A DNA stretch of 64,000 nucleotides from an uncultured Planctomycetales bacterium (GCA_964474085.1 CAYYRJ010000008.1:23677-87676); one strand, 5' to 3'; numbered from the stretch's first letter, positions 1-16,348 are shown. Notes: generated by a model from the sequence alone, not told the origin. A program made the numbers and translations.

Positions 1-1
1 G

Positions 2-1729: not shown

Positions 1730-1741
1730 AAGGAGGAACAC

Positions 1742-2080
1742 ATGAAAAAGATAGAAGCATATATTCAACCGTTTATGCTCAGTAAAGTTGTGAATGCCTT
1801 GCGCGCCATCCATATTCACGGGATGTCTGTTGTAGACGCTAAAGGGTTCGGCAAAGAAAAGGATGAGAGTTATCCGCACCATAATGTAGATCATTTGACG
1901 GACTTCACACCTAAGACAAGGATTGAAATTGTGTGTCTTGATGAGGATTATAAAAAAATAATAGAAGCTATTCGCCAATCTGCTCACACAGGACGTAAAG
2001 GAGATGGTAAAATATTCATCAGCAATTTGGAGCACGCTGTCAGCATTCGTAATGGCAAAGAAAATGAAGAGGCAATTTAA
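1742..2080 (+). CDS. P-II (GlnB-like fold) family protein, associated with the metal-efflux operon
   Basis: 112 aa, N-terminus MKKIEAYIQPFML typical of P-II-like proteins. RBS aaggagg upstream; immediately downstream of the RND pump. Confidence 0.55.
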   Translation: MKKIEAYIQPFMLSKVVNALRAIHIHGMSVVDAKGFGKEKDESYPHHNVDHLTDFTPKTRIEIVCLDEDYKKIIEAIRQSAHTGRKGDGKIFISNLEHAVSIRNGKENEEAI

Positions 2081-2186
2081 TTAACAAGGCTACTATGAGC
2101 GAAAATGGTAGTGCACTTTATAATTTATTTAATCAGAAAAAGAAAAAGTCAGGGAAAAGTAACGCTTCAGTAGAGGGGGTATAAAT

Positions 2187-2603
2187 ATGAGAAAGAATGC
2201 TATTGTTTGTGCAGTATTAAGTATTATAGTTTTCTCAGGTTGCCAAACTTTGGGCATGAAATTCAATGATGAGCATACAAAAGCACACAATGTTGAAATT
2301 CAAGTTGATCAAAAATTGAATAAATACATGAAAGGTGTAAGTTTGAGCCATCGGCTTTATGACGGAAAGGCTTTTCTGGCTTTAAGCGGTTCTTTGCAAA
2401 GACCTATTGGATCTTTCACGTCTTTATTAAAAGTTAATGCGAAGTTTTATGACGAGAATGGCCAAGTTGTGGCAGAGTCAAATGACAATGTACGTTTTAG
2501 TCGCATGGGATCGCGAACACATCGCCGCTATAAAGGTTCATTATTCTTAAAGATCGAGGATAATGTGACAATAAAGAAATGTGTTTTAGAGGTGACTGCG
2601 TAA
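2187..2603 (+). CDS. Hypothetical lipoprotein
   Basis: Signal peptide with lipobox-like FSGC; RBS gagggggt; no recognisable domain. Confidence 0.45.
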   Translation: MRKNAIVCAVLSIIVFSGCQTLGMKFNDEHTKAHNVEIQVDQKLNKYMKGVSLSHRLYDGKAFLALSGSLQRPIGSFTSLLKVNAKFYDENGQVVAESNDNVRFSRMGSRTHRRYKGSLFLKIEDNVTIKKCVLEVTA

Positions 2604-2636
2604 ACTAAACAATTAACCAATAAGAGGAGAATGTAA

Positions 2637-2930
2637 ATGAAAAAGAAAGCAATCGTTTTTAGTATGGCAATTTTATTATTCAGTTCTATCAGTTTTGTAT
2701 TTGCTCAAGAGCAAGTAAGCAATGAGAATGTTGTCAAGATTTGTCCAATCTGCGGCCCTGAAGCAAACATGATGGGCAAAGACGATATCGCCTTTGAATA
2801 TGAAGGAAAAACGTATCACTTTTGCAGTCAAGATTGTTTAAAAGCGTTCAAAAAAGATCCTGAAAAATTTGCTAAGAAAATGGATGAGGGAATGAATGTC
2901 GAATCGCACGAAGGGCATGATCATAAATAA
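2637..2930 (+). CDS. YHS/TRASH-domain metal-binding protein with signal peptide
   Basis: Motif CPICGPE...YHFCSQDCLKAFKKDPEKF is typical of YHS domains found next to P-type ATPases. His-rich C-terminus HEGHDHK. Confidence 0.6.
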   Translation: MKKKAIVFSMAILLFSSISFVFAQEQVSNENVVKICPICGPEANMMGKDDIAFEYEGKTYHFCSQDCLKAFKKDPEKFAKKMDEGMNVESHEGHDHK

Positions 2931-2942
2931 TCGAGAGTCAAA

Positions 2943-4844
2943 ATGACTGAACATCAAAATCAATGCGCTACTTGTAATCATAATGATACAAGGCAGGAGT
3001 TTGATGTAACAAAGAATGTATTTCTGATTGCCGTATCTTTGATTCTATTTGTTTGCGGTTTGATTTTTAATCGTCAGTTGCATGAAACGCCCGCTTTTGA
3101 ATATGGACTCTTTCTTTTTGTCTATTTCCTAAGCGGGCGTTTTGTTTTATTAAATGCTTTCCGTAATATTATTCGTGGCCGCATTTTTGATGAAAATTTT
3201 TTGATGAGTATTGCGACCATTGGTGCAATTGCAATTCATCAGCTGCCTGAAGCAGTCGCGGTGATGATTTTCTATCAGGTGGGGGAGTTCTTTCAAGAAA
3301 TCGCACTTAACCGATCTAGACGTTCCATCAAGGCTCTTCTTGAATTAAGGCCGGATTACGCGAATTTAAAACTCAATGGTGAATTTAAAAGAATTTCGCC
3401 TCAAGAGGTTAAAATTGACCAATTGATTGTGATTAAGCCTGGGGAAAAAATCCCTCTGGATGGAGTAGTCATAGAAGGTAGTTCGCAATTAGATACTTCA
3501 GCTTTGACTGGAGAATCTATACCTAGAACAATCAAGTCCGGCGAGGTAGTTTTGGCTGGGATGATTAATAAAACCGGCCTTCTTACCGTCAAAGTTACAA
3601 AGTCATTTGGAGAATCATCTATCTCAAGAATTTTGGAATTGGTTGAGAATGCCAGTAGCAAAAAAGCTGAGACTGAGAAATTTATTACTAAAATTTCGGC
3701 TTATTACACACCCGTTGTCGTTCTGATCGCTTTATTAATTGCTGTCGTTCCACCGCTGATTCTTGCTGGTCAAAGCTTCGACACATGGATTTACCGTGCG
3801 CTGGTTATTTTGGTTATTTCTTGTCCATGCGCGTTAGTGATAAGTATTCCATTGGGTTATTTTGGCGGTATCGGGGGAGCGGCTCGCAGGGGTGTCTTGA
3901 TTAAAGGTTCTAATTTCCTAGACGTTCTTACAGAGATCAAGACAATTGTATTTGATAAGACGGGAACGCTTACTAAAGGTGTTTTTAAAGTAACAGAGGT
4001 TATCGTAAGGAATGGATTTAATCAAAATGAGATCCTTGAATTCACTGCAATAGCTGAATCACAATCCAATCATCCAATTTCTAAATCGATTGTGGAGTCT
4101 TACGGGAAAAGAATTGATTTGTCAGAAGTTTCGGGATTTCAGGAAATATCCGGGCATGGGATTAAAGCTATAGTTCGCGGGAAAGAAGTCATTGCCGGAA
4201 ATGATCGTTTGCTTCACGCCGAGAATATTGAACATGATGTCTGCGAAGTTGTCGGAACTGTTGTTCATGTTGCTATTGATGGACGTTACTGTGGATATAT
4301 CGTCATTTCGGATGAGCTTAAGGATGATGCAGTTCAAGCAATCGAGTCACTAAGAAATGCTGGGATCGAAAAGATTGTTATGTTGACCGGAGATAACAAA
4401 TTCTCAGCGGGAGCAATCGCTAAACGGTTAAACATAGATTCATTTTATGCGGAATTGCTTCCAGAAGATAAGGTCAAGCACTTAGAGGAGATTCAAAAAT
4501 CTCAAGGACATAAAGTTGCTTTTGTTGGAGATGGCATAAACGATGCCCCAGTTTTAGCTCGAGCGGATGTCGGCATAGCGATGGGTGCTTTGGGTTCAGA
4601 TGTTGCGGTCGAAACGGCAGATATTGTCATTATGGCCGATTCTGTTTCTAAAATTGTGACGGCAATTGATATGGCTAAAAGAACCCGTCAAATAATTTGG
4701 CAGAATATATGGCTTGCTTTGGTTGTTAAATCAGTCTTTATTATTTTAGGAAGTTTTGGAGTGGCAACGATGTGGGAAGCTGTGTTCGCGGATATGGGCG
4801 TTGCCCTGCTGTCTATTCTGAATGCAACCCGGCTGTTAAAATAA
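2943..4844 (+). CDS. Heavy-metal translocating P1B-type ATPase (Cd/Zn/Pb-like)
   Basis: CPC motif (SCPCALV), TGES, DKTGTLT, GDGINDAP and MVGDGINDAP-type motifs, and an N-terminal Cys/His metal-binding region. Confidence 0.9.
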   Translation: MTEHQNQCATCNHNDTRQEFDVTKNVFLIAVSLILFVCGLIFNRQLHETPAFEYGLFLFVYFLSGRFVLLNAFRNIIRGRIFDENFLMSIATIGAIAIHQLPEAVAVMIFYQVGEFFQEIALNRSRRSIKALLELRPDYANLKLNGEFKRISPQEVKIDQLIVIKPGEKIPLDGVVIEGSSQLDTSALTGESIPRTIKSGEVVLAGMINKTGLLTVKVTKSFGESSISRILELVENASSKKAETEKFITKISAYYTPVVVLIALLIAVVPPLILAGQSFDTWIYRALVILVISCPCALVISIPLGYFGGIGGAARRGVLIKGSNFLDVLTEIKTIVFDKTGTLTKGVFKVTEVIVRNGFNQNEILEFTAIAESQSNHPISKSIVESYGKRIDLSEVSGFQEISGHGIKAIVRGKEVIAGNDRLLHAENIEHDVCEVVGTVVHVAIDGRYCGYIVISDELKDDAVQAIESLRNAGIEKIVMLTGDNKFSAGAIAKRLNIDSFYAELLPEDKVKHLEEIQKSQGHKVAFVGDGINDAPVLARADVGIAMGALGSDVAVETADIVIMADSVSKIVTAIDMAKRTRQIIWQNIWLALVVKSVFIILGSFGVATMWEAVFADMGVALLSILNATRLLK

Positions 4845-4863
4845 TGGCACAAATCCGGCACAA
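4845..4863 (+). repeat. TGGCACAAATCCGGCACA repeat unit (sigma-54-like TGGCAC-N5-nGGCA). A second copy lies at 5073-5107.
   Basis: 19-nt direct repeat (1 mismatch) on both sides of the orphan tRNA fragment. Matches the -24/-12 sigma-54 spacing. Confidence 0.35.
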
Positions 4864-4930
4864 GAATTTTTGAGGTTTTATAAGTTTAGTTATTTGAAGA
4901 GGTTGTGTAGGAGCCTAGTTCTCTCATAAC

Positions 4931-4967
4931 CTGAAGGTCACAGGTTCAAATCCTGTCCCCGCAACCA
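4931..4967 (+). pseudogene. Orphan tRNA 3' half (T-arm, 3' acceptor strand, discriminator and CCA) with no 5' half
   Basis: acagg-TTCAAAT-cctgt T-arm followed by ccccgca-a-CCA. The complementary 5' acceptor tgcgggg is not present upstream. Confidence 0.5.
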
Positions 4968-4973
4968 AATAAA

Positions 4974-5005
4974 AACCCAGTTTCCGACGAGGATTCTGGG
5001 TTTTT
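4974..5005 (+). terminator. Putative rho-independent terminator
   Basis: aacccag ... ctgggtt stem followed by a T-run, immediately after the tRNA fragment. Confidence 0.35.
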
Positions 5006-5072
5006 GTTTGCCTTGTGCAAATCTTCAATTACTGCCAATTTTGATGAATTTGGGCCATTTTTGATGTAAAGT

Positions 5073-5107
5073 TGGCACAAATCTGGCACATTTTTGGCAC
5101 ATCAAAA
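5073..5107 (+). promoter_or_regulatory. Three tandem TGGCACA boxes (sigma-54-like -24/-12 element) about 100 bp upstream of the island cargo gene
   Basis: tggcacaaatctggcacatttttggcacatc. Boxes are spaced 11-12 bp apart. The first two form TGGCAC-N5-TGGCA. Confidence 0.35.
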
Positions 5108-5208
5108 TCCCCCCTTTGACACCCCATAGTTGCTCGGTCGAAATAATAGCGTGAAAAAGATAAGAGTGTTAAAATAGAAAATTATTATTAATCCCTTTTT
5201 GGGTTTTT

Positions 5209-7845
5209 ATGAGAGACGCAGATAAAAAAATTAAAGAAGCAATTTCAATGGGTGAAAGAAATTTAGAGCTAATTAAATTGGCTCAGAATTTTTGTGCTCA
5301 TATGAGATTGGAAAAAGCGAGAATGGGTGGTACTGGCATCGTTGAACAAATGACCGGGCTGCCAATTGGATCAATGTCTTGTGGTTGCAAATATGCACGT
5401 GCCAACGGTTTTAGTGGCGGGGATACTGAAACGATCGCTATAGATTTTTACGACAGGAATTGTGTTGATTGTGATAAGCGATCTCCTGTAGGCATACCAA
5501 ATTTATTAAACTTAATTGAGGAAAAAAAGAAAAACGAATTAGAACGAAAAAGACAACAAGAGACGCAACAAGCAATATATGAAAAAACTAAGGCTGTTGA
5601 ATTAGAGGCGCGAAGAATCGAAAGGTCTAAGCTGCGTAATGATGACCTCTCGAGGAACTCAATCCTTGATCTTATTGATAAAATAGATGGAGGTTCCCAT
5701 GAAGATGCTGATAAATTAATTGAAACAGCAAAGATAGCACCAGATAAATTTGATTTGGATATTCAAAATGCTCTTTTTAGTCTCATAGATGGTGGGAATT
5801 TCTCTAATGTCGAGTCGGCCATAGAAACACTTACAATAATTGCGAATAATGGCCAATCGATTAATACGGATACAAGAGTAAACTTCAGTTGCAATGAACG
5901 GGAATTGATAGATATTGATCGATTAGTAGTTTCCTCGCTCAAAGCTCTGGATAGAGGTTCAGGGCATAACGAGGCAGCTACAGCAGTTGAATTTTGGCTC
6001 GATAAAAAACATGAAGTATATATAACCGACGATGTAATTGAAGGATTAATCCGCATCGCTTACCCTGCAAGAGAACCACTCTCATTTAGCGCCACTGTTT
6101 ATAGGCCTAGCCCTTTGCAAAGAATATATGATATTTTTCCAGAAAAAGTTTTAGCTACTGTAAGAAAGCTTTTAGCAATCGATGAGAAATGGATTAGAGT
6201 TTCGGCTGCAGGAGCTGCTCGATATATCATAGAAAAAGATGCTCAGTTTGGAATCAATATAGCCGAAACTTTATTGGATTCGTTAGACTTATCCGATGAT
6301 ATGTACGACGGTGGATCTGCTCGAGTAGCTGCCATGCATACTCTGGGAAAAGCTCTTAGTGAAGCGCCAAATGAAATTGATAAGTTCATCCAGGGAAAAA
6401 TTGAAAAAATATCCTCTCATTTAAGAGGGGATATTTTTTATGCATATGATGCGATCTTCCGAGAAGACAGGCGTGGAAAAAAGAGAGAGCTTCCAGAAAA
6501 TCTAAGAAATTTGGTCATCAAAAGACTTTTGGAAACTCTAATACTCAAACCGGATGATGAAAGACTTGAAAAAGCAACGGATATATTGCAAGGATTTGAA
6601 TATGGCCATATGGAATATCTCATCGGCCATGAAGATTTACTTTTGGGAGCGGCTGCACAAATAGCTGCGGAGTTAGACAATCCATATAGCTTGCTTACTG
6701 ATCCTCGGCCAGATTCAATCAAGATGATGGAGTCGACTACGAGACGTATCCATCTTCAATCTGCGTTGGAAGTTATCATGAAGCATGTTGGCTATTTGGG
6801 GAAGATTCGACCTCTTACGATAGGTAATCAAGTCGTCGAGTGTATAAATAATTTAAAGGAGCACAGCGGCCATTTAAAAAGCGCGCTCATTTCTACACTC
6901 GGATATATTGGATCTAGCGCTCAAGGATTGCCTTTGGTCTTACCAAGTCTTAGTTCTGGATTCAGTGATTCCAATTCTTTAGTTCGTTCTTGCGCGGTTG
7001 AATCGTACGGTAATCTTACTTCCCATAAGTCAGTAAGTTTACCATCCTCTTTACATGAATTATTTTGTGCATCTCTTAGCGATCCCTATGTCTTGGTACA
7101 TACGCGAGCCGTTGAGGTATTGCGAAAGTCCCGCCTCCCAGAGGAATATGTTCCTTTAATAAGGAATAAGTTAATCCTTCTAATGTTGGTTTATCGCCAA
7201 GAAAAGAATGGTGCAGATTTTCTAGCAAGATGCATTGATGAACTATTGAATTTAACTGACAGATTCCAACTTGTTGAATCGAAGCTTGCTAATTTTGTTT
7301 TAGGGATAATGCCTCTTATTTCCCCGTATGAGAGGGTTAAAACGTTCATTTTTCATCGCCATCAATTAAAGGAAGCGGAGAAATATTCAGAGCAAGTCGC
7401 AACTTTATTAAATGAAGAGTATCTTTATGGTTTAAACATAGGTGAAGCTATGGAGCTTGTTGGTGAATTACCTGTTGCAGAGGTGTTACGGATCAGGTCC
7501 ATTCTTAAAGATGCAGCTAAGAAATTGATTAGCAATAATCTGTACGGCTATTCTTTGGAAATAATTGAGTTGTTATCAATTGCTTATTGCTGGGATGCGG
7601 CCCACGAGGTGGTTGAATTTTTTGTTAATTCCATTGAAGACACGACAGAAAATAAACCTTTGAGGTTGAAGGCTCTGGCTTATCAGTCCGCCGTAGGACT
7701 AGAAGTAGCAATATTATCCAAAGATGATGCAAAAGCGGAATATTATCGTAAGACGTGGAAAGAAAATCTAATAAAAATACAAAAAGACAATGAGACAAAC
7801 GCAGACAGAAGAAGTTTTTTTAGAGGCATACGATTGCCGCGTTAA
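5209..7845 (+). CDS. Large uncharacterised protein (878 aa) with an N-terminal Cys cluster and HEAT/ARM-like repeats; island cargo
   Basis: Long ORF; Cys motif CGC...CVDC; repeated VRxxAxExL-like helical repeats; AT-rich codon usage. Confidence 0.7.
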   Translation: MRDADKKIKEAISMGERNLELIKLAQNFCAHMRLEKARMGGTGIVEQMTGLPIGSMSCGCKYARANGFSGGDTETIAIDFYDRNCVDCDKRSPVGIPNLLNLIEEKKKNELERKRQQETQQAIYEKTKAVELEARRIERSKLRNDDLSRNSILDLIDKIDGGSHEDADKLIETAKIAPDKFDLDIQNALFSLIDGGNFSNVESAIETLTIIANNGQSINTDTRVNFSCNERELIDIDRLVVSSLKALDRGSGHNEAATAVEFWLDKKHEVYITDDVIEGLIRIAYPAREPLSFSATVYRPSPLQRIYDIFPEKVLATVRKLLAIDEKWIRVSAAGAARYIIEKDAQFGINIAETLLDSLDLSDDMYDGGSARVAAMHTLGKALSEAPNEIDKFIQGKIEKISSHLRGDIFYAYDAIFREDRRGKKRELPENLRNLVIKRLLETLILKPDDERLEKATDILQGFEYGHMEYLIGHEDLLLGAAAQIAAELDNPYSLLTDPRPDSIKMMESTTRRIHLQSALEVIMKHVGYLGKIRPLTIGNQVVECINNLKEHSGHLKSALISTLGYIGSSAQGLPLVLPSLSSGFSDSNSLVRSCAVESYGNLTSHKSVSLPSSLHELFCASLSDPYVLVHTRAVEVLRKSRLPEEYVPLIRNKLILLMLVYRQEKNGADFLARCIDELLNLTDRFQLVESKLANFVLGIMPLISPYERVKTFIFHRHQLKEAEKYSEQVATLLNEEYLYGLNIGEAMELVGELPVAEVLRIRSILKDAAKKLISNNLYGYSLEIIELLSIAYCWDAAHEVVEFFVNSIEDTTENKPLRLKALAYQSAVGLEVAILSKDDAKAEYYRKTWKENLIKIQKDNETNADRRSFFRGIRLPR

Positions 7846-7867
7846 TATTATTAACGGTATAGCTGAT

Positions 7868-9250
7868 ATGAAAAGCGTTGGGGAAAAGTGTTCCGCGCTT
7901 AATAATATCAAGTCTGATATCGATAAAATTATTGAGCTATTAGGCAATAATTATGTGAAGGAGTTTTATTTAATTTTTAAGAGTTTATTTACTGCCTATG
8001 AATTTCTAACGCAATGGGAAGAAGCTGTAAAGAATGCCGCTGAGAATTCAGGTCGATTTCACGAAGCGTATAAATATCACATCAAAGAAGCATTTAAGAA
8101 AATTAATGGGTTAGAACCTAATAAAGATTTGGTTAATGCAGCTAGCGGCATGGACAATATTGTTGTAACCGATGATATCGGGAAAGCCTTAAAATCTTTA
8201 TCCGCTATCCCGTTGCCTTTACCAATTCATTGGGAAGAGGATCCGGAGTTAAAAAAACATTATCTACAAGAAACAAAAAATGCAAAACGAGAGCCGATGA
8301 TAACGGCATTCTTAAATTTTAAGATTAATAATGAAAACCTTCAAGATCCACACCTTATCGATCCAAATACTTTATACGATTTAAATTTAGAAGTCCGAAT
8401 AAACAGATGGCCGGGAAATTCAGAGAAGCTGGTAATTCAGCCATTATCAGATGTCACAGGAGAGAATTATCAAATGCCAACATTTGAAATATCAAAGAAT
8501 GAAAAGAATAAGACTTATCACGTCTCGGGAAGAATGGCGATAAAGATTGGGCAAACATTTGAATCGCAACCGTTAGAGTTTGTATATCAGGCATATATTT
8601 TGCCAGGACAAGAAGTTATCGCTGTTACAGGAAATAACCGGATAAATGTGAGGAGTAATTCTGAAGGCAAGCTCATAATATCTGGATATTACGAGGCAGA
8701 TAAAGTATTAATGACAGTAAGATCAAAAATAACGAAAGAAGCAGGCATCACTTCTGAGCAAAGAATCAACTTTTTGCTAGTGATGAAGCATCTCGCTAAT
8801 ATAGCTGGACAAGCATTAGCATCTAATGATTTCCCGGACGTTTGGGCTGAGAAAGACTTTCAGACGGAGATCAGGAAGCGATTGCGCGCTGTTCCTGAAA
8901 TAGGAAGTCAATTGCTTGAGCATCCTAATGTCGCGGCTGGTATACCAGATTTGTTTTTCAAAAAACTGCAAATAGAACTGAAAACCCAGAACGAAAAGAT
9001 AGTCACTTTAGATAATGCTCAATCATTTTCGCAACAGGGAGCTCAATATGTGGCAGGATCGGATAATCGTTTAGGAATTATTTGTATTCTGGATTGTTCT
9101 GACAAGAAGCTGGCTCCGGGATCATTAATGAATGACATTGGATTGATTTCTGTTCCAGTGCCAGGAATTATTCAGGGTGGTTTTCCTTTGATATTGGGTG
9201 TGGTAATAATTCGAGGTAATCTGGGGAAGCCCAGCTCATTTAGTAAGTAA
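7868..9250 (+). CDS. Uncharacterised protein (about 460 aa) with a C-terminal PD-(D/E)xK-like motif; island cargo
   Basis: ORF 7790-9250; the likely start is ATG 7868, which avoids overlap with the upstream gene. Motif GIPDLFFKKLQIELK near the C-terminus. Confidence 0.6.
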   Translation: MKSVGEKCSALNNIKSDIDKIIELLGNNYVKEFYLIFKSLFTAYEFLTQWEEAVKNAAENSGRFHEAYKYHIKEAFKKINGLEPNKDLVNAASGMDNIVVTDDIGKALKSLSAIPLPLPIHWEEDPELKKHYLQETKNAKREPMITAFLNFKINNENLQDPHLIDPNTLYDLNLEVRINRWPGNSEKLVIQPLSDVTGENYQMPTFEISKNEKNKTYHVSGRMAIKIGQTFESQPLEFVYQAYILPGQEVIAVTGNNRINVRSNSEGKLIISGYYEADKVLMTVRSKITKEAGITSEQRINFLLVMKHLANIAGQALASNDFPDVWAEKDFQTEIRKRLRAVPEIGSQLLEHPNVAAGIPDLFFKKLQIELKTQNEKIVTLDNAQSFSQQGAQYVAGSDNRLGIICILDCSDKKLAPGSLMNDIGLISVPVPGIIQGGFPLILGVVIIRGNLGKPSSFSK

Positions 9251-9251
9251 C

Positions 9252-9479
9252 TTAAGGTAGAAAGAATTTTGTAGGCTTTTTATATATCTTGGCTAGTTCT
9301 TGGAGTTGTACGAGGTCAATTCGACGTTGGCCGGATTCGATTTTAGAAATATAAGATTGGGTTCGCCCCAGTTTATCCGCAGCATCTTCCTGCCGCAATT
9401 TTGCTTCCTCGCGGGCTTTGATCAGTAGTCCAACCAAGCGCTGATGTTCTTTGGAGTAAATGGTTTTCTTTGCAGGCAT
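9252..9479 (-). CDS. XRE-family HTH transcriptional regulator (cI/Cro-like)
   Basis: 75 aa; Q-x-x-L-A-x-x-L-G-x-x-Q-S-Y-I-S-K-I-E HTH signature. Confidence 0.7.
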   Translation of the reverse strand: MPAKKTIYSKEHQRLVGLLIKAREEAKLRQEDAADKLGRTQSYISKIESGQRRIDLVQLQELAKIYKKPTKFFLP

Positions 9480-9510
9480 AAGTATTGTCTTCCCCTATAA
9501 AAAATGATAT

Positions 9511-9540
9511 ATTCCATTATGTAATATGCCAAAATGGAAT
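9511..9540 (+). promoter_or_regulatory. Palindromic operator ATTCCATT-N14-AATGGAAT in the divergent region between the XRE gene and the lipoprotein gene
   Basis: Perfect 8-bp inverted repeats read directly in the sequence. Confidence 0.45.
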
Positions 9541-9551
9541 ATGGAGGCATC

Positions 9552-9998
9552 ATGCGAAATATTGCTCTGATTGTAATTTTGCTTTGCTTCATGGGGTGTT
9601 CGGCCACGGAGTGGAATCAATTGATGTGGGGTAATCCTAACGGGCCGCAGCCAGCCCCTAAACAGTACGGCGCTCTATGTATTACTTGCCAACGTGATTT
9701 TGTGGTGACTGAGCAGATTATTAGTGCTGGGAAGGGAGTTGTTTGTCCATATTGTGGCAAAGAGCAAGATATTCAGATGGCCATGAACCGGTACACATAT
9801 CAAACCCAGCAGCAACAAGAAGTAGCTAATCAGGCTTTTTGGCAAAAGCGACAAGAGACTTTACAGCGAAGGAGAGAAGAAGAGCAGAAAGCAAGTGAGG
9901 AACGGAAAAAATGGTTGTTAGCTCCAAGTCAACGACAATCCACGCATACAAGTTGTAGCCCTAATGGGAGTGGTGGGTTTTCTTGCAATTCTTGGTAA
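9552..9998 (+). CDS. Lipoprotein with a CxxC...CxxC zinc-ribbon and a charged, Q-rich C-terminal helix
   Basis: Signal peptide MRNIALIVILLCFMGCS; motifs CITC...CPYC; QQQQE/RRREEEQK low-complexity region. Confidence 0.5.
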   Translation: MRNIALIVILLCFMGCSATEWNQLMWGNPNGPQPAPKQYGALCITCQRDFVVTEQIISAGKGVVCPYCGKEQDIQMAMNRYTYQTQQQQEVANQAFWQKRQETLQRRREEEQKASEERKKWLLAPSQRQSTHTSCSPNGSGGFSCNSW

Positions 9999-10288
9999 GA
10001 ATATTATTTAAAGAGAGCATTGAAACATGGTTTTTTGCAAAAATTTGTTGATTTTTATTTAAAATTATGGTCTAATTAAAATACGGTTGACAGTACCCGT
10101 ATAAAAAAACTGGTCACTTCTATCCGTCGAAAAGGATCCTTGTTTAAGGGATTAAATGGACGGCTCTACGAAGGGTATCGAGCAGGAAATAGTTGAATCG
10201 CTCGGAACTCTTCGTTTTTTTATTTATTGGCCGAAGATTCGAGCAAGCGCTTGAGTCCTCGGTTTTTTTATTGTTCAAAAGGAGCCAA

Positions 10289-10480
10289 ATGAGAAATGAT
10301 AACTTTTTGAATCAGATTCGTAAGAGGCAAAAGTTAAAACTTAAGGATATTTCCAGTAAAACGGGATTGAGCGTTGGATATTTAGGAACAATTTTTTCCG
10401 GGAGACTTTCATTTGTACCTGAGCAGACCAAAAGTAAGATCGCCATGGCATTGGGTGTTTCAAAAAAATTTATTTATTAA
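10289..10480 (+). CDS. Small XRE-type HTH protein
   Basis: LKDISSKTGLSVGYLGTIFSG HTH. The ORF is listed from 10193 but the likely start is ATG 10289. Confidence 0.45.
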   Translation: MRNDNFLNQIRKRQKLKLKDISSKTGLSVGYLGTIFSGRLSFVPEQTKSKIAMALGVSKKFIY

Positions 10481-10868
10481 GGCATGTGAATTTAATTTTT
10501 GGGCGCCTTTTTGAACTAAACAATTTTGACTAGACCTCATATATAAACGAAAGAGAAAAGATGCTCAACCATGCTTTAACCTATTTAAGACGAGGGTGGG
10601 CTGTATTCCAGGTACAAGTTAAAGAGCTGTTCGGGTGTAAATTCCATGCGTTCTTTCTTTGAGTTTGCGTTCGTAATAGGTTCCAATGGTGGCATCCTTT
10701 TGGCAGTATATTCTTTTTTCGCCTAAAGTTAATTAACCCTTCCGCTTGAGGTCACTGTCGCTGAAAAAATGGGGGAGCATACGGTCAAAGCGGGTTTAAT
10801 TTCCAAATCAAATACTTCTGCGAGAGATGCGTTGTTGAAATTGAATCTTGTAAAAAAGTGAAGGCCTT

Positions 10869-12842
10869 ATGTACAAAGTATTTTGGAACCAAGTAATATC
10901 TCCTCGCCGATTATCAAATGGACATTATATTGCCAACTGCCCACTATGCGGCGAAACAGACGGACATTTCTACGCTAATTATTTATCCGGCCAGTGGGAC
11001 TGTAAAAAATGCCAAGCCAAGGGCAACGCGGTCACGTTCCTGCGGGATCACCAGAGGATGCCGGACGCCCAGATCGCTAATGAACTAAACCGATTAGGTA
11101 TAGCCTCAACTTCTGAATCACAAAGGTTACCCCAACCCAAGAGCGAATACAAGATTTTTGATGAGAAGATGGTCGATTATTATTGTTCCCAATTATCCAC
11201 GGACAAGAAGGCGGAATTTGCCGCGGAGCGCGGGCTGTCTGTTGAGATATTGGATAAGTACCGGCTGGGGATCAATGATATTGGCGAGTTCACTCTCCCC
11301 GTATTCGATACTCAAGGAAAGATTAGAAACATCCTAAGGAAAAAGCCGGGAGAGTCGACCATTTCAATTCAAGGCGGCGAAGGGTTACTTTTCGGAGTTG
11401 AGGACTTAATCGCGCCGGTTATTTTTGTAGTTGAAGGTCCGTGGTCGGCCATGGCCTTAAAAGAACGCGGATTTAAGGCGGTCGGGACTCCCGGGGCCGG
11501 GATTTTGAAGGATAGCCAAGTTGACTTGTTTAAAAGCAAGGAAGTCTATCTAATCCCGGACAACGACGAACCTGGCAGGAAGGGGATGGCGTCAATCGCC
11601 CAGAAGCTCCGCGGCGTTGCGGAAAGCGTTTATACGATAAGTCTACCAGTCCCGGAGAAGAAGGATGCCCGTGATTTCTTTAAGGCTGGTGGTACCGTGG
11701 ACCAGCTTGAGGAACTTATCAAGCAGGCCCGAGAGAATCCGTCTGTGATGGCAGAGTCAGAAATTGAGAAGCACTCCAGCCATAAAAAGTTGTCACCCGT
11801 TCCCAGTTACGACGAATTTATTAAGCAAGAGTTCCCTCCAGTTGAGTTTTTTATCGGTAGTGTAGACGGAGGTGCCTTATTGCAAAAGAACGGGATTACC
11901 ATGATCAGCGCGGAATTTGGCAAGGGCAAAACGCTTTTGGGTTTAAACATGGCTTGGGCCATTACTAAGGGCGTTGATATTTTCCTGGGCTTTCCCGTTA
12001 AGAAGGCCCGGGGGCTTTATTTGATATTTGAGGGCGGCAATTCGTCATTTCAGAAGCGATTAAAGGCCATAGGCGAAGGGGAGTCGAACCCGGACTTATA
12101 CGTGAAGTGTATCGTTCACTCGTTTAATTTGACCCCTACCGGGAACGAGAAGACCGAAGACCAGAAGGAATTTGAGGAAGAGATTGAACGACTTAAGGTC
12201 GACTTTGTTGTTATTGACAACGCCGCGAATGTTTTTTCTGGGGATGAGAATGATCAAAAGCAAGTTAAGCCGTTTATGGATTACCTGATCTCGGTTAAGG
12301 AGAAATTCAGGGTGTCATTTATTATTTTACGGCATTGGAAGAAGACTCAAGCCAAGGGCGGTAGCCCAAAAAGGCAAATGGCAACAGGGTCAATATGGTG
12401 GCTTAACGCGGTGGATAACCAGATATGCCTATCGGGTGAGTCCATAGACAGTATTATCCTAAGCACCGAAAAGGAACGGAACTGTGCTTCATTCTCGCCC
12501 AAAGTGGTCACAATTACAAAGCCGGATTTACATTTTAAGTTTCTCAAGGATTTTGCCAGCAACGGTCCGCGCTATACCGAAGACAACACGCTCCTGCCTG
12601 CTTGGGAGAGTTTCGGGGCCACCCGGGTTAAGCAGACGGACTTGGTTGTCAAGATGACCCAGATTGTCCAGGCCGGTGGGGCTAAGTGTTCAAAACGGAC
12701 AGCTAGTGGGCTTTTAGACAATAGTAAGCGCTTCTTTAAGACGCCTATCGTTCCCGGTAGCAGGAAATCTGGCAATTGGATCGCTTTAAAGCCGGATTCT
12801 GGTATTGAACTTTTTGACGAGGGTGAGGACAATGTTTCTTAA
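10869..12842 (+). CDS. Bifunctional primase-helicase (CHC2-like zinc finger, Toprim, RepA/DnaB-like P-loop)
   Basis: CPLCG...CKKC zinc motif; Toprim E (VVEGPW) and DxD (PDNDEPG); Walker A AEFGKGKT. Architecture typical of P4-alpha/PICI-type replication initiators. Confidence 0.85.
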   Translation: MYKVFWNQVISPRRLSNGHYIANCPLCGETDGHFYANYLSGQWDCKKCQAKGNAVTFLRDHQRMPDAQIANELNRLGIASTSESQRLPQPKSEYKIFDEKMVDYYCSQLSTDKKAEFAAERGLSVEILDKYRLGINDIGEFTLPVFDTQGKIRNILRKKPGESTISIQGGEGLLFGVEDLIAPVIFVVEGPWSAMALKERGFKAVGTPGAGILKDSQVDLFKSKEVYLIPDNDEPGRKGMASIAQKLRGVAESVYTISLPVPEKKDARDFFKAGGTVDQLEELIKQARENPSVMAESEIEKHSSHKKLSPVPSYDEFIKQEFPPVEFFIGSVDGGALLQKNGITMISAEFGKGKTLLGLNMAWAITKGVDIFLGFPVKKARGLYLIFEGGNSSFQKRLKAIGEGESNPDLYVKCIVHSFNLTPTGNEKTEDQKEFEEEIERLKVDFVVIDNAANVFSGDENDQKQVKPFMDYLISVKEKFRVSFIILRHWKKTQAKGGSPKRQMATGSIWWLNAVDNQICLSGESIDSIILSTEKERNCASFSPKVVTITKPDLHFKFLKDFASNGPRYTEDNTLLPAWESFGATRVKQTDLVVKMTQIVQAGGAKCSKRTASGLLDNSKRFFKTPIVPGSRKSGNWIALKPDSGIELFDEGEDNVS

Positions 12843-13068
12843 CTTATCATGCAAAATTGCCGTCTGCACTATAAATGAACGTAAATTTGGTTTCTTAACG
12901 TATGGTGCAAAACGTAATTTTGCATTAGAACGCCACAAAGACGCAAACGGTTGTGGTGCGCATAAAGCGCACAAACAACCTTGCGATGAGGTTTCTTATG
13001 CAGAGGAAAAACACTATATAGGGAAAGAAACGTTTGCATAAGAAAAAAAGAGGTTTGAAAGGAGAACA

Positions 13069-13511
13069 ATGGAGCTAACACCCTCGCATGAAATTTTTGC
13101 CCAGGAGTTGATCGTTAATAAAAGCAACCTAACGTCAGCGTATGCCAAAGCATATCCAAAGGCTTCTTATCCGTCTTGCCGTCAGGGAGTAAGCTGACAG
13201 AAATAATCGACCGTTTGCCACCGGGTCGCATGCGTTCTGATTACAGCAAAAAAAGGGACGCTTTGAGTTCTGTTTCTAGAGAAAAGGAAGAGGAATCAGA
13301 AAGAATAAGCGCGCTCGTGGATATAGCAAAACAAATGAACACGGACTGTTTTATGTGTAAAGAGGTCGTGGAGAAATTTGATCGCAATCAACCTTTAAGC
13401 GATGGAGATAAATATCATATACAATCGCATATCCCTGCGGTAGTCCGGTTGCGGGAATTCAAGGGAAAAGTTTTGGTGAGTATCAAATTATTGATTAACC
13501 ACATATTCTAA
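13069..13511 (+). pseudogene. Frameshifted terminase small-subunit-like gene. The N-terminal HTH is in one frame and the remainder in the +1 frame.
   Basis: 42-aa ORF MELTPSHEIFAQELIVNKSNLTSAYAKAYPKASY matches the TerS N-terminal LTPKQE..F..EY...N.T.A...AGYS signature. ORF 13176-13511 continues in another frame from a TTG. Confidence 0.4.
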
Positions 13512-13972
13512 TTGGATAGGTTCCCGGATGGATCATGACCACAGAAGTTGCGCGCAAAAGGACAATAAGTGCGTGGAATTTAAGTTATAGTGCATAACTT
13601 ACTTTATATCAATTAGTTAAGTGCTGGTTAACATAACCTCAACTATGCGTAACTCATTATATTCCATATCTTTACGATTTGTTGACGCGATTCCCAGCTC
13701 GGCGGTATGTAATTTTACTTAACTTCAATAACTGCATATATTTACAATGAAAAATTAGATAGAAAATATGATGGGAATACACGCGCACGCACAGGTAAGT
13801 ACGTTTATAGCTGGACGCATGTTAGGGCAATTCCATATTTTAAAATTGGCAGGTTGCTACGATTCAAAAAGTCAGAAATCGATCGCTGGATCAACGAGCG
13901 CAGGGTTGAAGAAAGGATAATTTAGGAAGATTAGTTAATTTTAACAGTGAACGTTAAAAAAAGGAGCGAAAA

Positions 13973-14509
13973 ATGGAATCATCTTTTAAATTGAGTGTAA
14001 GTACTTTTATGAGACCAGATCAAGATATTCCGAAATTGATTAGAGCAATGATGAATGATTTGGGGGAGAAAACACCTGATTTTAGCTCGATTCAAGAGGC
14101 ACTGGACTGGTTGAATATGTCCACTGCACCTTTTAAGTTATTTCTAAATTTTATGTTTGAAGACTCCTTGGGTGAGCCGGGTAGGGACTGCCTCAAGAAA
14201 ATACATACAAAATATGGAAAATCACTTATTGAGTTTACATTTGAAGAACTTAAAAACTTTTCATTGACGCCAGAGGGGGAAGAGCTTAAGCGGGTGATTT
14301 TAGTGCGTAAATATCCTATAAGATTTAGCCCCATCGATACCGAATCGCGTGAGGAGTATATTTTTGAGAAAGCAAAATTGGTGTATAAGCTGATTGGGGA
14401 AATTCATTCAGTGATTAAGGCTGGACATAATCCACGAAATTTACTGGCGAGCATGGAGGATTTTCTTTCGGAACCAGAGTATCGATATTTCTTCGAGAGT
14501 GACTATTAA
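13973..14509 (+). CDS. Hypothetical protein (178 aa)
   Basis: ORF with RBS aaggagcg; no recognisable motif. Confidence 0.45.
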   Translation: MESSFKLSVSTFMRPDQDIPKLIRAMMNDLGEKTPDFSSIQEALDWLNMSTAPFKLFLNFMFEDSLGEPGRDCLKKIHTKYGKSLIEFTFEELKNFSLTPEGEELKRVILVRKYPIRFSPIDTESREEYIFEKAKLVYKLIGEIHSVIKAGHNPRNLLASMEDFLSEPEYRYFFESDY

Positions 14510-14558
14510 GAATGAACTCATTTAAGCAGACTTGCGGGGGTAGTTCTTAGGAACTTCG

Positions 14559-14741
14559 ATGGAAAAACGTTTTCTAAATAAAAAAGAACTGGCTGAGTAT
14601 CTGGGCGTTAAGGTTGGCACCCTGTCCGTCTGGGTTTGCTATCGAAAGATCCCGTTTGCCCGTATTGGCAGACTCGTAAAGTTTGACCTGCGTAAAATTG
14701 ATGCTTGGATAGCTGAAAACTCTGTTGAAGTTATGAACTGA
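14559..14741 (+). CDS. AlpA/excisionase-family HTH DNA-binding protein
   Basis: 60 aa; LNKKELAEYLGVKVGTLSVW...IPFARIGRLVKFD matches the Phage_AlpA / Xis HTH_17 pattern. Located upstream of int. Confidence 0.7.
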   Translation: MEKRFLNKKELAEYLGVKVGTLSVWVCYRKIPFARIGRLVKFDLRKIDAWIAENSVEVMN

Positions 14742-14771
14742 TGTTGGTATAATTTGGCGTAAACGCAATTA

Positions 14772-14800
14772 TTGACAATGTATATACATAGATATACAAT
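14772..14800 (+). promoter_or_regulatory. Near-consensus sigma-70 promoter TTGACA-N17-TACAAT with the 12-bp palindrome ATGTATATACAT in the spacer
   Basis: Read directly from the sequence; located upstream of the RHH-int operon. Confidence 0.5.
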
Positions 14801-14811
14801 GGGAGCGTGAG

Positions 14812-14958
14812 ATGTCGAGAGATGAACAGATCAATATCCGCTTAACTCAGGACGAAAAAAAGCAGATTCAGAAAGATGCCCAAGAGCAGGAAAGAACAGC
14901 CAGTAATTTGCTTTTGTGGTGCTGGAAAGAATGGCGAAAGTCGAAAGCGAAGAAATAG
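14812..14958 (+). CDS. Ribbon-helix-helix (CopG/Arc-like) small protein, 48 aa
   Basis: INIRLTQDEKKQIQKDAQEQERTASNLL RHH signature. RBS gggag. Stop TAG sits 1 nt before the int ATG. Confidence 0.5.
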   Translation: MSRDEQINIRLTQDEKKQIQKDAQEQERTASNLLLWCWKEWRKSKAKK

Positions 14959-14959
14959 C

Positions 14960-16078
14960 ATGAATGGTGTATTCCAAAACAAAAAGACTGGGAATTGGTT
15001 TATCGATTATCGCTTGCCTAATGGCAGGCGTCGGCGGGAAACCATTGGCACAAGCAAGAAGCTGGCAGAGAATGTTTTGAGCAAGCGCAAGGTCGGAATT
15101 GCCGAAGGAAAGTTTCTTGATGTTGTTAAGAAGGAGCGTATTAAATTTGAAGATTTTGCCCAAGAATATTTTACTATTCATTCCAAGCAGCACAAGAAGG
15201 GTTGGCAAACTGATTCGTTTAATATAAAAATTTTGAATAGGTTTTTTAAGGGTAAGTATTTATACGAAATCACGCCAGTTGATATCGAGCATTTTAAAAT
15301 CGAGCGGCTCAAAGAAAAGGTTGGCTTAAAAACGATCTCTCTCTCGACTGTTAATCGACAGTTGGACACGCTGCGCGGGATTCTAAATAAAGCAGTCTCG
15401 TGGGGTAAATTGCAAACTAATCCCATGAAGTCAGTTCAATCACTTAAGGTAGCTCCGGGGCGACTTCGTTTTCTTGAGAAAGAGGAGATCGTCAAGCTCT
15501 TATCAAATTGTACGAAAAATCTGCGGCCTATTGTGGTCTTAGCTTTATTTACTGGTATGCGCCGGGGTGAGATTCTTGGTCTTAAATGGCATGATATCGA
15601 CGTTAAGCGGAATATTATTACTCTGTTGGAAACAAAGAATAATCAGAAAAGAGAAGTGCCTATGAGCGAGCATGTAAAAACTGCTCTTATCCGTGTTAGA
15701 AAGCATCCAGATTGCGCATATGTTTTTTGTAATGAAAAAGGTCTACCAGTGCATGACATTCGCAAATCTTACTCGACAGCGCTGCGAAAATCTGGTATAA
15801 AAGATTTTCGCTTTCACGACCTACGCCATACTTTCGCCAGTCAACTGGTCATGGCAGGCGTTGACATCAATACGGTCAGGGAGCTTTTAGGGCATAAAGA
15901 TATTACGATGACTTTACGATATAGTCATTTGGCCCCGAGGCATAAGCAACATGCCGTTGATATTTTGAGCAAGAAAATGGACACTTTTTGGACACTTGAG
16001 GCTAAGCCCAACAATGTTATGAAAAGTGATGTATCAGAAACCATTGAAAATAGATTAGTTACAAATTTCGGGGAGTAG
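14960..16078 (+). CDS. int: Tyrosine-type site-specific integrase
   Basis: R..HDLRHTF...[14 protein letters not shown] catalytic signature. N-terminal SAM-like domain. The 3' end overlaps the tRNA-Pro 5' end. Confidence 0.9.
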
Positions 16079-16145
16079 CGCAGGTGGCTAGCGCGCAACG
16101 TTCGGGACGTTGAGGTCGTGGGTTCAAATCCCACCTTCCCGACCA
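16069..16145 (+). tRNA. tRNA-Pro (anticodon CGG)
   Basis: Manual fold: acceptor cggggag/cttcccg, D-stem gcgc/gcgc, anticodon stem caacg/cgttg with loop ttCGGga, T-arm gtggg-ttcaaat-cccac, discriminator A, encoded CCA. Confidence 0.85.
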
Positions 16146-16180
16146 GACTATAAATAAACGCGCTGTATAAGTTTTGCTGA

Positions 16181-16254
16181 TTTAGGGAGTCCTTTTTAAG
16201 GCGAATTGCGCCATAGAGGCGCCAATCAAATGAGCCGTAAAAGGACTCCTTAAA
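16181..16254 (+). other. Long imperfect hairpin (about 17-bp stem) enclosing an inner gcgcc/ggcgc hairpin, downstream of tRNA-Pro
   Basis: tttagggagtccttttta ... taaaaggactccttaaa inverted repeat. Confidence 0.3.
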
Positions 16255-16348
16255 TCGACAAGTATAGATATTAAATTGCAGTCTGTTAGAGTGTCCTTCC
16301 AATTTCCTACCTTTTATATAATGCTTTTTTCATTGAAAGGAGCCGGAT

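Follow-up and report, generated by a model that had tools for sequence, protein, structure and literature searches.

Among the described mobile elements closest to the locus reported here are two kinds of phage satellites, the phage-inducible chromosomal islands (PICIs, such as the SaPIs and those of the EcCICFT073 type) and the P4-like satellites. The carriage of anti-phage defence genes by satellites is established (Rousset et al. 2022, PMC9122126). We analysed a stretch of 64,000 nucleotides (GCA_964474085.1 CAYYRJ010000008.1:23677-87676, deposited as uncultured Planctomycetales bacterium), called hereafter the window; positions are counted from its first nucleotide. With moderate confidence, we read the segment from about 4845 to 16108 as a PICI-like, phage-satellite-type integrative element (the island) in a Candidatus Omnitrophota chromosome, present as a degenerate and probably chimeric copy.

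The island resembles PICIs in its size of about 10 kb, its terminal integrase, its divergent repressor/Cro-like switch, its primase/replicase with an adjacent repeat-rich region, the presence of a small terminase subunit (TerS) in its family, its accessory defence cargo, and the lack of structural and lysis genes. It differs from them in that the integrase reads outward into a tRNA gene and replaces its 5′ half, and also by its gene order (cargo, switch, primase, terS, xis, int), its Omnitrophota host and its broken terS. With the P4-like satellites (PMC9122126) it shares a tRNA-associated integrase, an excisionase/AlpA-type helix-turn-helix (HTH) protein, a primase-helicase and a variable anti-phage slot. 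In contrast to these, Pfam and PHROG scans detected none of the Psu, Sid and Delta genes, and its primase belongs to the DnaG-Toprim plus AAA_25 type, not to the P4 alpha type. Moreover, P4 uses the 3′ end of a tRNA gene and lies downstream of it, whereas the island lies upstream and uses the 5′ half. An earlier reading of the window (the sequence-only reading) had labelled the locus as both P4-like and PICI-like. On these differences the first half of the label falls, while the second is kept on account of the TerS of a relative, L112, described below.

The right border was located by comparison with related genomes. With the DNA ligase LigA encoded beside the island as a query, metagenome-assembled genomes of Candidatus Omnitrophota were retrieved. 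The block tRNA-Pro(CGG)-DUF4870-acylphosphatase (acyP)-ligA was kept in five relatives (L005, L007, L008, L009 and L013), and L005 shares 91% amino acid identity with the window over LigA and 89% nucleotide identity over the right flank. The following features mark the border.

16069–16145, + strand: intact tRNA-Pro(CGG), detected by ARAGORN and Rfam, the sole tRNA called in the region.
16067–16108, + strand: expected att core, from −2 to about +39 of tRNA-Pro through the anticodon loop, placed by analogy with the 40–43 nt repeats of relatives.

Nucleotide homology between the window and the relatives starts at 16064–16068, that is, at the first base of tRNA-Pro. Upstream of this tRNA, L005, L008 and L013 carry riboflavin (rib) genes, fabF, fabG and fabZ, as well as metY in L005 and L008; none of these rib, fab and metY genes is found anywhere in the 64 kb window. 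The tRNA-Pro(CGG) sequence is the same in the window and in the empty-site relatives L005 and L008. The sequence-only reading had predicted that relatives lacking the insertion would show an empty tRNA-Pro neighbourhood. This is what L005, L008 and L013 exhibit, with homology breaking at the 5′ end of the tRNA gene.

Independent contigs cross the right junction (L001, L004 at 97%, and L122) and the left junction (L100), and one, L099, which begins at 5072, covers the element with 100% identity over 5072–16097. An assembly chimera is therefore ruled out, and by these alignments the island is a real insertion in a Candidatus Omnitrophota chromosome. The variable element measures about 11.2 kb (4845–16108), and nearly all genes to the left of tRNA-Pro are on the + strand. 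Its GC content is 0.405 overall, 0.381 in the cargo genes oloA and oloB described below and 0.476 in the primase gene, versus 0.446 in the right-hand host DNA, in agreement with the AT-richer left cargo announced by the sequence-only reading.

Additional observations were made at the junctions. Logan unitigs end at 16097 (16067 plus 30) in two samples. In one Logan sample contigs end at 4950 and 5072; the coverage of this organism is about 3x (cov_ values in its ENA contig names), so that these ends may be random. The reciprocal junction was sought via the metY orthologue, and the best match, L116, belongs to another organism (77% nucleotide identity, versus 89% for the window). An inverted repeat with 23-nt arms, 87% complementary and separated by a 42-nt spacer, lies in host DNA just downstream of tRNA-Pro (16174–16261).

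The genes that carry the comparison with satellites are, from left to right:

9252–9479, − strand: XRE/HTH_3 repressor-like regulator of 75 aa (Pfam HTH_3, 1.7e-13; PHROG transcriptional repressor families).
9509–9542, no strand assigned: candidate operator palindrome with 13-nt arms, ATATTCCATTATG/CAAAATGGAATAT, within divergent promoter-like sites.
10289–10480, + strand: small Cro-like HTH protein of 63 aa (Pfam HTH_3, 1.3e-4, just under the cut-off; phrog_8).
10869–12842, + strand: intact primase-helicase with a CHC2 zinc ribbon (Zn_ribbon_DnaG), Toprim_2 and an AAA_25 P-loop domain (5.7e-22); phrog_239, 5e-36.
12834–13060, no strand assigned: repeat-rich intergenic stretch with GTTTCTTAAC..TGCAAAA twice and several palindromes.
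13069–13197, + strand: terS pseudogene, 42 codons (13069–13194) followed by a stop.
14559–14741, + strand: excisionase-type protein of 60 aa (HTH_17, 5e-10).
14772–14800, + strand: TTGACA-17-TACAAT, the best of the island's sigma-70-like promoters, ahead of the genes for the ribbon-helix-helix (RHH) protein and the integrase.
14812–14958, + strand: RHH protein of 48 aa, NikA/Arc-like.
14876–16078, + strand: open reading frame (ORF) of the tyrosine integrase, with a homologue-supported start at 14960 (Pfam Phage_integrase, 1e-36).
15978–15995, + strand: two phased TGGACAC units with 11-nt spacing in the C-terminal codons of the integrase, putative P-arm sites.

Hidden Markov model (HMM) and BLAST searches thus recovered the gene set that the sequence-only reading had listed: integrase, RHH protein, excisionase, primase-helicase, XRE regulators with a palindromic operator, and a terS remnant. 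The excisionase, which had been called AlpA, is indeed an excisionase-type HTH protein, but it matches HTH_17 (PF12728) and not the AlpA model itself. All catalytic residues of the integrase (R..HxxR..H..Y) are present. The RHH protein scores 27.9 bits with a NikA-like model (cut-off 27, E = 2.6e-6) and 3e-4 with an Arc-like PHROG, and its stop codon lies 2 nt ahead of the integrase ATG at 14960. The repressor-like gene is divergent from the + strand genes, with the palindrome between the two, and the repeat-rich stretch at 12834–13060 is a candidate origin or packaging site.

The decayed terS announced by the sequence-only reading was recognised as a 42-codon stump, 57% identical to the N-terminus of the Terminase_2 protein of L112 (tblastn 6e-12, blastp 3e-15, phrog_51 5e-4). 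It sits between primase and xis, and is identical in the independent contig L099. The ORF 13176–13511, considered as a frameshifted C-terminus of TerS, had no BLAST or Pfam support.

L112 is a 9.6 kb element within a 359 kb chromosomal contig. It consists, in this order, of an orphan tRNA-Leu 5′ half, arm units, seven unknown genes, HTH_3 (on the − strand), HTH_17, a YozE-like gene, primase, TerS, xis, int and tRNA-Leu. The N-terminus of its primase is 59% identical to that of the window, and its TerS is an intact Terminase_2 of 139 aa (Pfam 8.9e-10, above the cut-off) located at the position of the stump. As a comparison of homologues, this intact TerS supports a PICI-like satellite family. 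The primase-helicase has few homologues, 30 matches that are all metagenomic and in which a zinc-ribbon/Toprim primase is fused to differing helicase modules; none was found in IMG/VR. One phage-like contig of 23 kb (L111, Logan SRR17828886), with capsid, P22-type portal and Terminase_6N genes, encodes a primase-helicase 39% identical to that of the island, and is a possible lead to phages of related hosts and to a helper lineage.

An integrase, an excisionase, a cI/Cro-like switch, a primase-helicase and a terS fragment are all prophage-type genes, and could be what is left of a decayed temperate prophage reduced to its lysogeny and replication module. We regard this as highly improbable. Pfam and PHROG scans found no structural or lysis genes among the island ORFs, so that capsid, portal, tail and lysis remnants are all lacking in the window copy, and the family members with both att ends are only 4.2–9.6 kb long and are likewise devoid of structural genes. 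Furthermore, no close DNA or protein relative was found in 50,697 phage records, where the best identities were 31–32%.

To return to the satellite-type element, its mode of integration was deduced from relatives of the integrase. A metagenome scan with the window integrase gave 11 loci, at 53–79% identity. In all 11, and in L112, whose integrase is 73% identical to that of the window and ends at tRNA-Leu(CAA), int ends at most about 15 nt from a tRNA gene of the same strand, or overlaps it. The targets across these 12 loci are Pro-CGG, Pro-TGG, Leu-CAA and Lys-CTT, and the HTH_17 excisionase-type gene is kept beside the integrase across the family. Four distinct elements for which both ends were recovered carry a perfect direct repeat of 40–43 nt of the tRNA 5′ half, 4.2–9.6 kb upstream:

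L089, 3915–3954: distal 5′-half repeat.
L090, 5238–5280: distal 5′-half repeat (L091 is the same element).
L092, 388–428: distal 5′-half repeat.
L112, 4774–4814: distal 5′-half repeat.

These repeats span tRNA positions −2 to +39/41, that is, the 5′ half through the end of the anticodon loop. Because the distal repeats are 5′ halves, the elements of the relatives lie upstream of an intact tRNA gene and supply its 5′ half. In L089 a promoter-like TTGACG-17-TAAAAT, read from the sequence, stands ahead of the orphan 5′ half, and in L112 the orphan tRNA-Leu 5′ half directly follows tRNA-Ala. Judged from these repeats, the integrase family is one that swaps the tRNA 5′ half and leaves the original, promoter-proximal half orphaned at the far end. 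In L090 (5177–5192; L091 1444–1459), a second, 16-nt copy of the tRNA-Pro 5′ end was observed about 60 nt upstream of the 43-nt attL repeat, which suggests a scar of an earlier integration at the same site.

In the relatives, TGGACAC/TGGACAG units with 11-nt phasing occupy the C-terminal codons of the integrase, about 70 nt before the core, and a second set lies about 110–120 nt past the distal core. Wherever a locus has both ends, the TGGACAS units were found exactly twice, one per arm. About 55–60 nt after the distal core stands a CGACGAG motif, which reads CGACAAG in L112. From their position, phasing and conservation, the phased units would be arm-type integrase sites. In the window, the integrase stop codon (16076–16078) falls within the tRNA-Pro gene, which starts at 16069: the frame continues for five codons beyond the stop of the relatives (16067–16078), its TAG being nt 8–10 of the tRNA, and the C-terminus and stop codon of the protein thus sit within both the att core and the tRNA gene.

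Elements that enter tRNA genes through their 5′ part have been reported before, although section 7 of PMC6563490, citing Zhao & Williams 2002 (J Bacteriol 184:859), describes this as far rarer than entry into the 3′ part. The island family is akin to the cases presented there, archaeal ones included, in that the 5′ part is replaced and the usual orientation reversed; replacement of the 5′ part implies that the element must supply transcription signals. The cases given in these sources are isolated ones, whereas here a whole integrase lineage (12 loci) is concerned, with arm repeats in the int frame.

The window fails the family pattern on its left side, where the distal tRNA-Pro 5′-half repeat is absent. 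No second copy of either tRNA-Pro half was found in the 64 kb window, nor in the 5.2 kb further left provided by contig L096. The left end consists of the following features.

4845–4862, + strand: outer flank of an att-like relic, phased TGGCACA and CGGCACA units with 11-nt spacing, directly after the ATPase stop codon.
4904–4967, + strand: initiator-tRNA(fMet)-like relic, with a well preserved 3′ half (4923–4967) and a degraded 5′ part.
4966–5010, + strand: terminator-like hairpin with a T-run; its loop contains CGACGAG (4986–4992), a motif kept in the P′ arms of relatives.
5073–5101, + strand: three TGGCACA units with 11-nt phasing, positioned like the P′-arm units of relatives (TGGACAC there).

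The fMet-like 3′ half starts with the anticodon loop CTCATAA, includes a compensated T-arm and ends in CCCCGCAACCA. It aligns to tRNA-fMet, not to tRNA-Pro, and neither ARAGORN nor Rfam called the relic as a tRNA. As its sequence matches the initiator tRNA-fMet, this orphan cannot be the att duplicate of tRNA-Pro. The sequence-only reading, which had bounded the island by tRNA-Pro and an orphan tRNA 3′ half, has to be amended on this point: the orphan is fMet-like, and the repeats of the family are 5′ halves.

Measured from a core boundary set where the fMet-like anticodon loop ends, the distances to CGACGAG and to the units are similar to those in the P′ arms of relatives. The TGGCACA-unit pattern has three matches in the window, versus 0.01 expected. 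The two arms of the window do not match, however, with three TGGCACA units on the left (5073) and two TGGACAC units on the right (15978), whereas relatives carry one unit type on both arms. A scan of IMG/VR for the TGGCACA pair returned nine contigs, of which five have the motif at or near the end of a distant (26–30% identical) tyrosine integrase; in two of the five (L102 and L110) a tRNA 3′ end is close by, on the reverse strand. Because it is found near integrase ends in these contigs, TGGCACA is a recurrent integrase-associated motif. The matches are distant, high-GC prophage integrases, which lend support to the arm-site reading only, and the scan gave no close relative of the island.

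Two side observations concern these units. In four of the high-GC IMG/VR prophages (L102, L106, L108 and L109), phased TGGCAC(A/G) units are within the C-terminal codons of the integrase, and in the prophage L110 they lie just upstream of the integrase start, so that arm-type repeats inside integrase genes may be widespread. The TGGCACA units at 5084–5101 and 4845–4862 also match the sigma-54 −24/−12 pattern (TGGCAC-N5-TGGCA, GG-N10-GC). Such a pattern is located 108 nt upstream of oloA on the correct strand, and the units could be a sigma-54 promoter of these genes, or have that as a second role.

We read the variable, element-derived DNA as spanning 4845–16068, its left end being the putative att relic of a related, initiator-tRNA-specific element. 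The present island would then probably be a chimera or a rearrangement product, formed for example when two related elements resident at distinct tRNA loci recombined. Such a rearrangement would also account for the absence of the rib, fab and metY genes beside tRNA-Pro. Excision by its own integrase is improbable because the cognate attL is absent, and this copy is probably non-excisable by that route.

The DNA to the left of the relic (window 1–4844, together with L096) encodes acr3, an arsC-type LMWPc, czcC, czcB, czcA, a PII-like protein, a lipoprotein, a YHS-domain protein and a Cd/Zn P-type ATPase. The leftward extension L096 itself holds only acr3-arsC-czcCBA, with no tRNA and no att site. 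In relatives of the ATPase cluster (L118 at 81%, L120 and L121 at 77%), the czcCBA-PII-YHS-ATPase genes are kept together as a block, and their similarity to the window ends at the ATPase stop codon, at 4844. Beyond it the DNA of the relatives is variable, with mobile elements in L118 and L120, that of L118 comprising a serine recombinase and a DUF5906 primase. No tRNA-fMet was found downstream of the ATPase in relatives L118–L121. The position after the ATPase looks like a hotspot for mobile elements.

The same region raises the possibility of a larger composite island, built upstream of tRNA-Pro and including the acr3-arsC-czcCBA-ATPase genes, in which the relic at 4845–5101 would be an internal scar between two elements. 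Nothing to the left of 16068 is syntenic with L005 or L008, the relic has arm-type units on both sides of its tRNA-derived core, as in an attP or a tandem-element junction, and the variability after the ATPase, with the mobile elements of L118 and L120, fits as well. Conversely, neither a tRNA-Pro 5′ half nor an integrase was seen in the leftward 10 kb, relatives keep the czc-ATPase cluster together next to other neighbours, and the scar derives from tRNA-fMet rather than tRNA-Pro. We hold this larger island for doubtful, although it is the strongest of the competing explanations, and keep 4845 as the left limit of the satellite-type element in what follows.

The left part of the element contains two overlapping genes:

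5209–7845, + strand: OloA-like protein of 878 aa, helical-repeat/adaptin-like (PADLOC OloA, 7.9e-20; weak HEAT match).
7790–9250, + strand: OloB-like protein of 486 aa (PADLOC OloB, 3.5e-12; LmuA C-terminus, 3.7e-8).

Olokun is a two-gene anti-phage system in which OloA, an adaptin-like protein, and OloB, a nuclease of the PD-(D/E)XK kind, assemble into a 2:2 complex (bioRxiv 10.1101/2025.07.10.664194). The island genes resemble it by the OloA-OloB order, with oloB overlapping oloA by 56 nt on the same strand, by the PADLOC matches, by the helical-repeat signal of OloA and by the PD..ExK motif visible in OloB (GIPD...ELK near residues 385–399, with D387 and K399). They differ from it in that the matches are distant, and in that OloA is longer than the model (878 aa versus 596 positions). 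The AT-rich left part is thus putative Olokun-like anti-phage cargo. In L112, the corresponding slot, bounded by the distal att site and the gene of the repressor, is occupied by seven unrelated genes, which have no match in defence or phage libraries; therefore the slot is variable. The sequence-only reading had expected anti-phage cargo in a variable hotspot, and both the OloA/OloB matches and the L112 slot bear it out. The OloA/OloB identity of 5209–9250 was absent from that reading.

Several points weigh against the interpretation as a PICI-like satellite with defence cargo. Its satellite status is based on architecture and on one relative with TerS. In this copy TerS is defective, and no function able to hijack packaging is left. 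Neither a helper phage nor a capsid-remodelling gene nor a packaging signal was identified. Most relatives of the integrase (L089–L092) are plain cargo carriers of 4–7 kb, which have only xis-int in common with the window and no primase or TerS, so that the integrase family is broader than any satellite family. An empty-site comparison could not settle the left border, since the czc/ATPase flank, too, lacks synteny with the relatives. For the cargo, the scores of OloA (69.6 bits) and OloB (44.2 bits) are HMM matches without curated thresholds, the single-sequence structure model of OloB had a pLDDT of 36 and was unusable, and no sequence relative of either protein was found in the PDB. The crossover position and the read-through into the tRNA, proposed below, are likewise deduced from the arrangement of the genes.

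Part of these points would suit a helper-independent, integrative and replicative cargo element, tycheposon-like or of the integrative mobilizable type, moving by vesicles, transformation or conjugative mobilisation, in which terS would be an incidental leftover of phage exchange. The xis-int cargo carriers, the non-functional terS and the missing helper are all expected in that case, and the RHH protein matches a NikA-like relaxosome accessory family. As far as the preprint on tycheposons (Hackl et al., bioRxiv 10.1101/2020.12.28.424599) describes them, these elements are comparable by their tRNA-specific tyrosine recombinases, whose specificity varies by tRNA, by the coexistence of PICI-like and cargo-only forms on one integration module, by partial tRNA repeats and by accretion beside tRNA genes; their hosts belong to a different phylum. 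However, L112, the nearest relative with the N-terminus of the primase as well as the integrase, keeps an intact Terminase_2 at the same position, no relaxase or oriT-type gene was found in Pfam and PHROG scans, and a homologue of the primase sits in the phage-like contig L111. On balance such a helper-independent element is somewhat unlikely, and we retain the PICI-like satellite.

The remaining features of the island lie in and around its regulatory and replication genes.

9552–9998, + strand (ORF listed from 9534): small lipoprotein-like zinc-ribbon protein, of no family.
13973–14509, + strand: protein of 178 aa without family match.

Half-sites of the operator palindrome (ATTCCATAT) are present at 13661, 13830 and 13969, upstream of the gene for the 178-aa protein. 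This recurrence suggests that the same repressor also controls that gene. Two hairpins in succession, both followed by a T-run and both ending in GTTTTTTTATT, occupy 10190–10272, ahead of the small HTH gene. These structures may act as terminators or as an attenuator, or belong to a small RNA; they had no Rfam match. Just upstream of the DnaG-type primase, a short ORF of 33 aa (10562–10663, MLNHALTYLRRGWAVFQV...) is similar to the motif at the N-terminus of bifunctional Prim-Pol proteins. A former replicase, since replaced, may have left this ORF behind, but it found no support in Pfam.

A mechanism can be proposed for intact members of the family. The integrase would recombine the attP core, a copy of a tRNA 5′ half located just 3′ of int, with the chromosomal tRNA gene, in or near the anticodon loop, and the HTH_17 excisionase and perhaps the RHH protein would set directionality. 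After integration, the element would supply the 5′ half of the working tRNA, and the host promoter would be left with the original 5′ half, orphaned at the far end. Since no terminator was found between int and tRNA-Pro, transcripts of the working tRNA would probably start in the element, at the RHH-int promoter, and reach the tRNA by read-through. The repressor/Cro-like switch would govern the primase-helicase, which would replicate the excised circle from the repeat-rich stretch at 12834–13060. In intact members, TerS would divert the packaging of a helper phage. OloA and OloB, encoded in the slot between attL and the repressor gene, would guard the host against other phages.

A bolder version of this scheme, which we think unlikely, goes one step further. 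The lineage would systematically seize promoter-proximal tRNA halves, making tRNA-Pro(CGG) a downstream cistron of the RHH-int operon, so that expression of a host tRNA is coupled to the state of the element, as a retention or addiction device or as a sensor; the whole would form an undescribed satellite family of Omnitrophota with att arms in the int frame. As to the present copy, int, xis, the RHH gene, the primase gene and oloAB are intact while terS and the cognate attL are lost. From this balance of genes, it has the look of a satellite that is turning into a defence island fixed in place.

Omnitrophota are uncultured bacteria of very small size, and very little is known of the phages and mobile elements of this phylum; we found no description in the literature of elements such as the island in it. 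What is new here is the host phylum, the lineage-wide mode of integration into tRNA 5′ halves, and the arm repeats within the integrase reading frame. Satellite-like, defence-carrying islands are thereby extended to Omnitrophota. Island-finding programs that expect an intact tRNA, then the element, then a 3′ fragment would misplace or miss such elements. Finally, with int, xis, a 40-nt core and phased arm repeats, the family offers a simple, testable system for how integrases switch between tRNA targets, and it lets one test whether a host tRNA depends on the promoter of an element.

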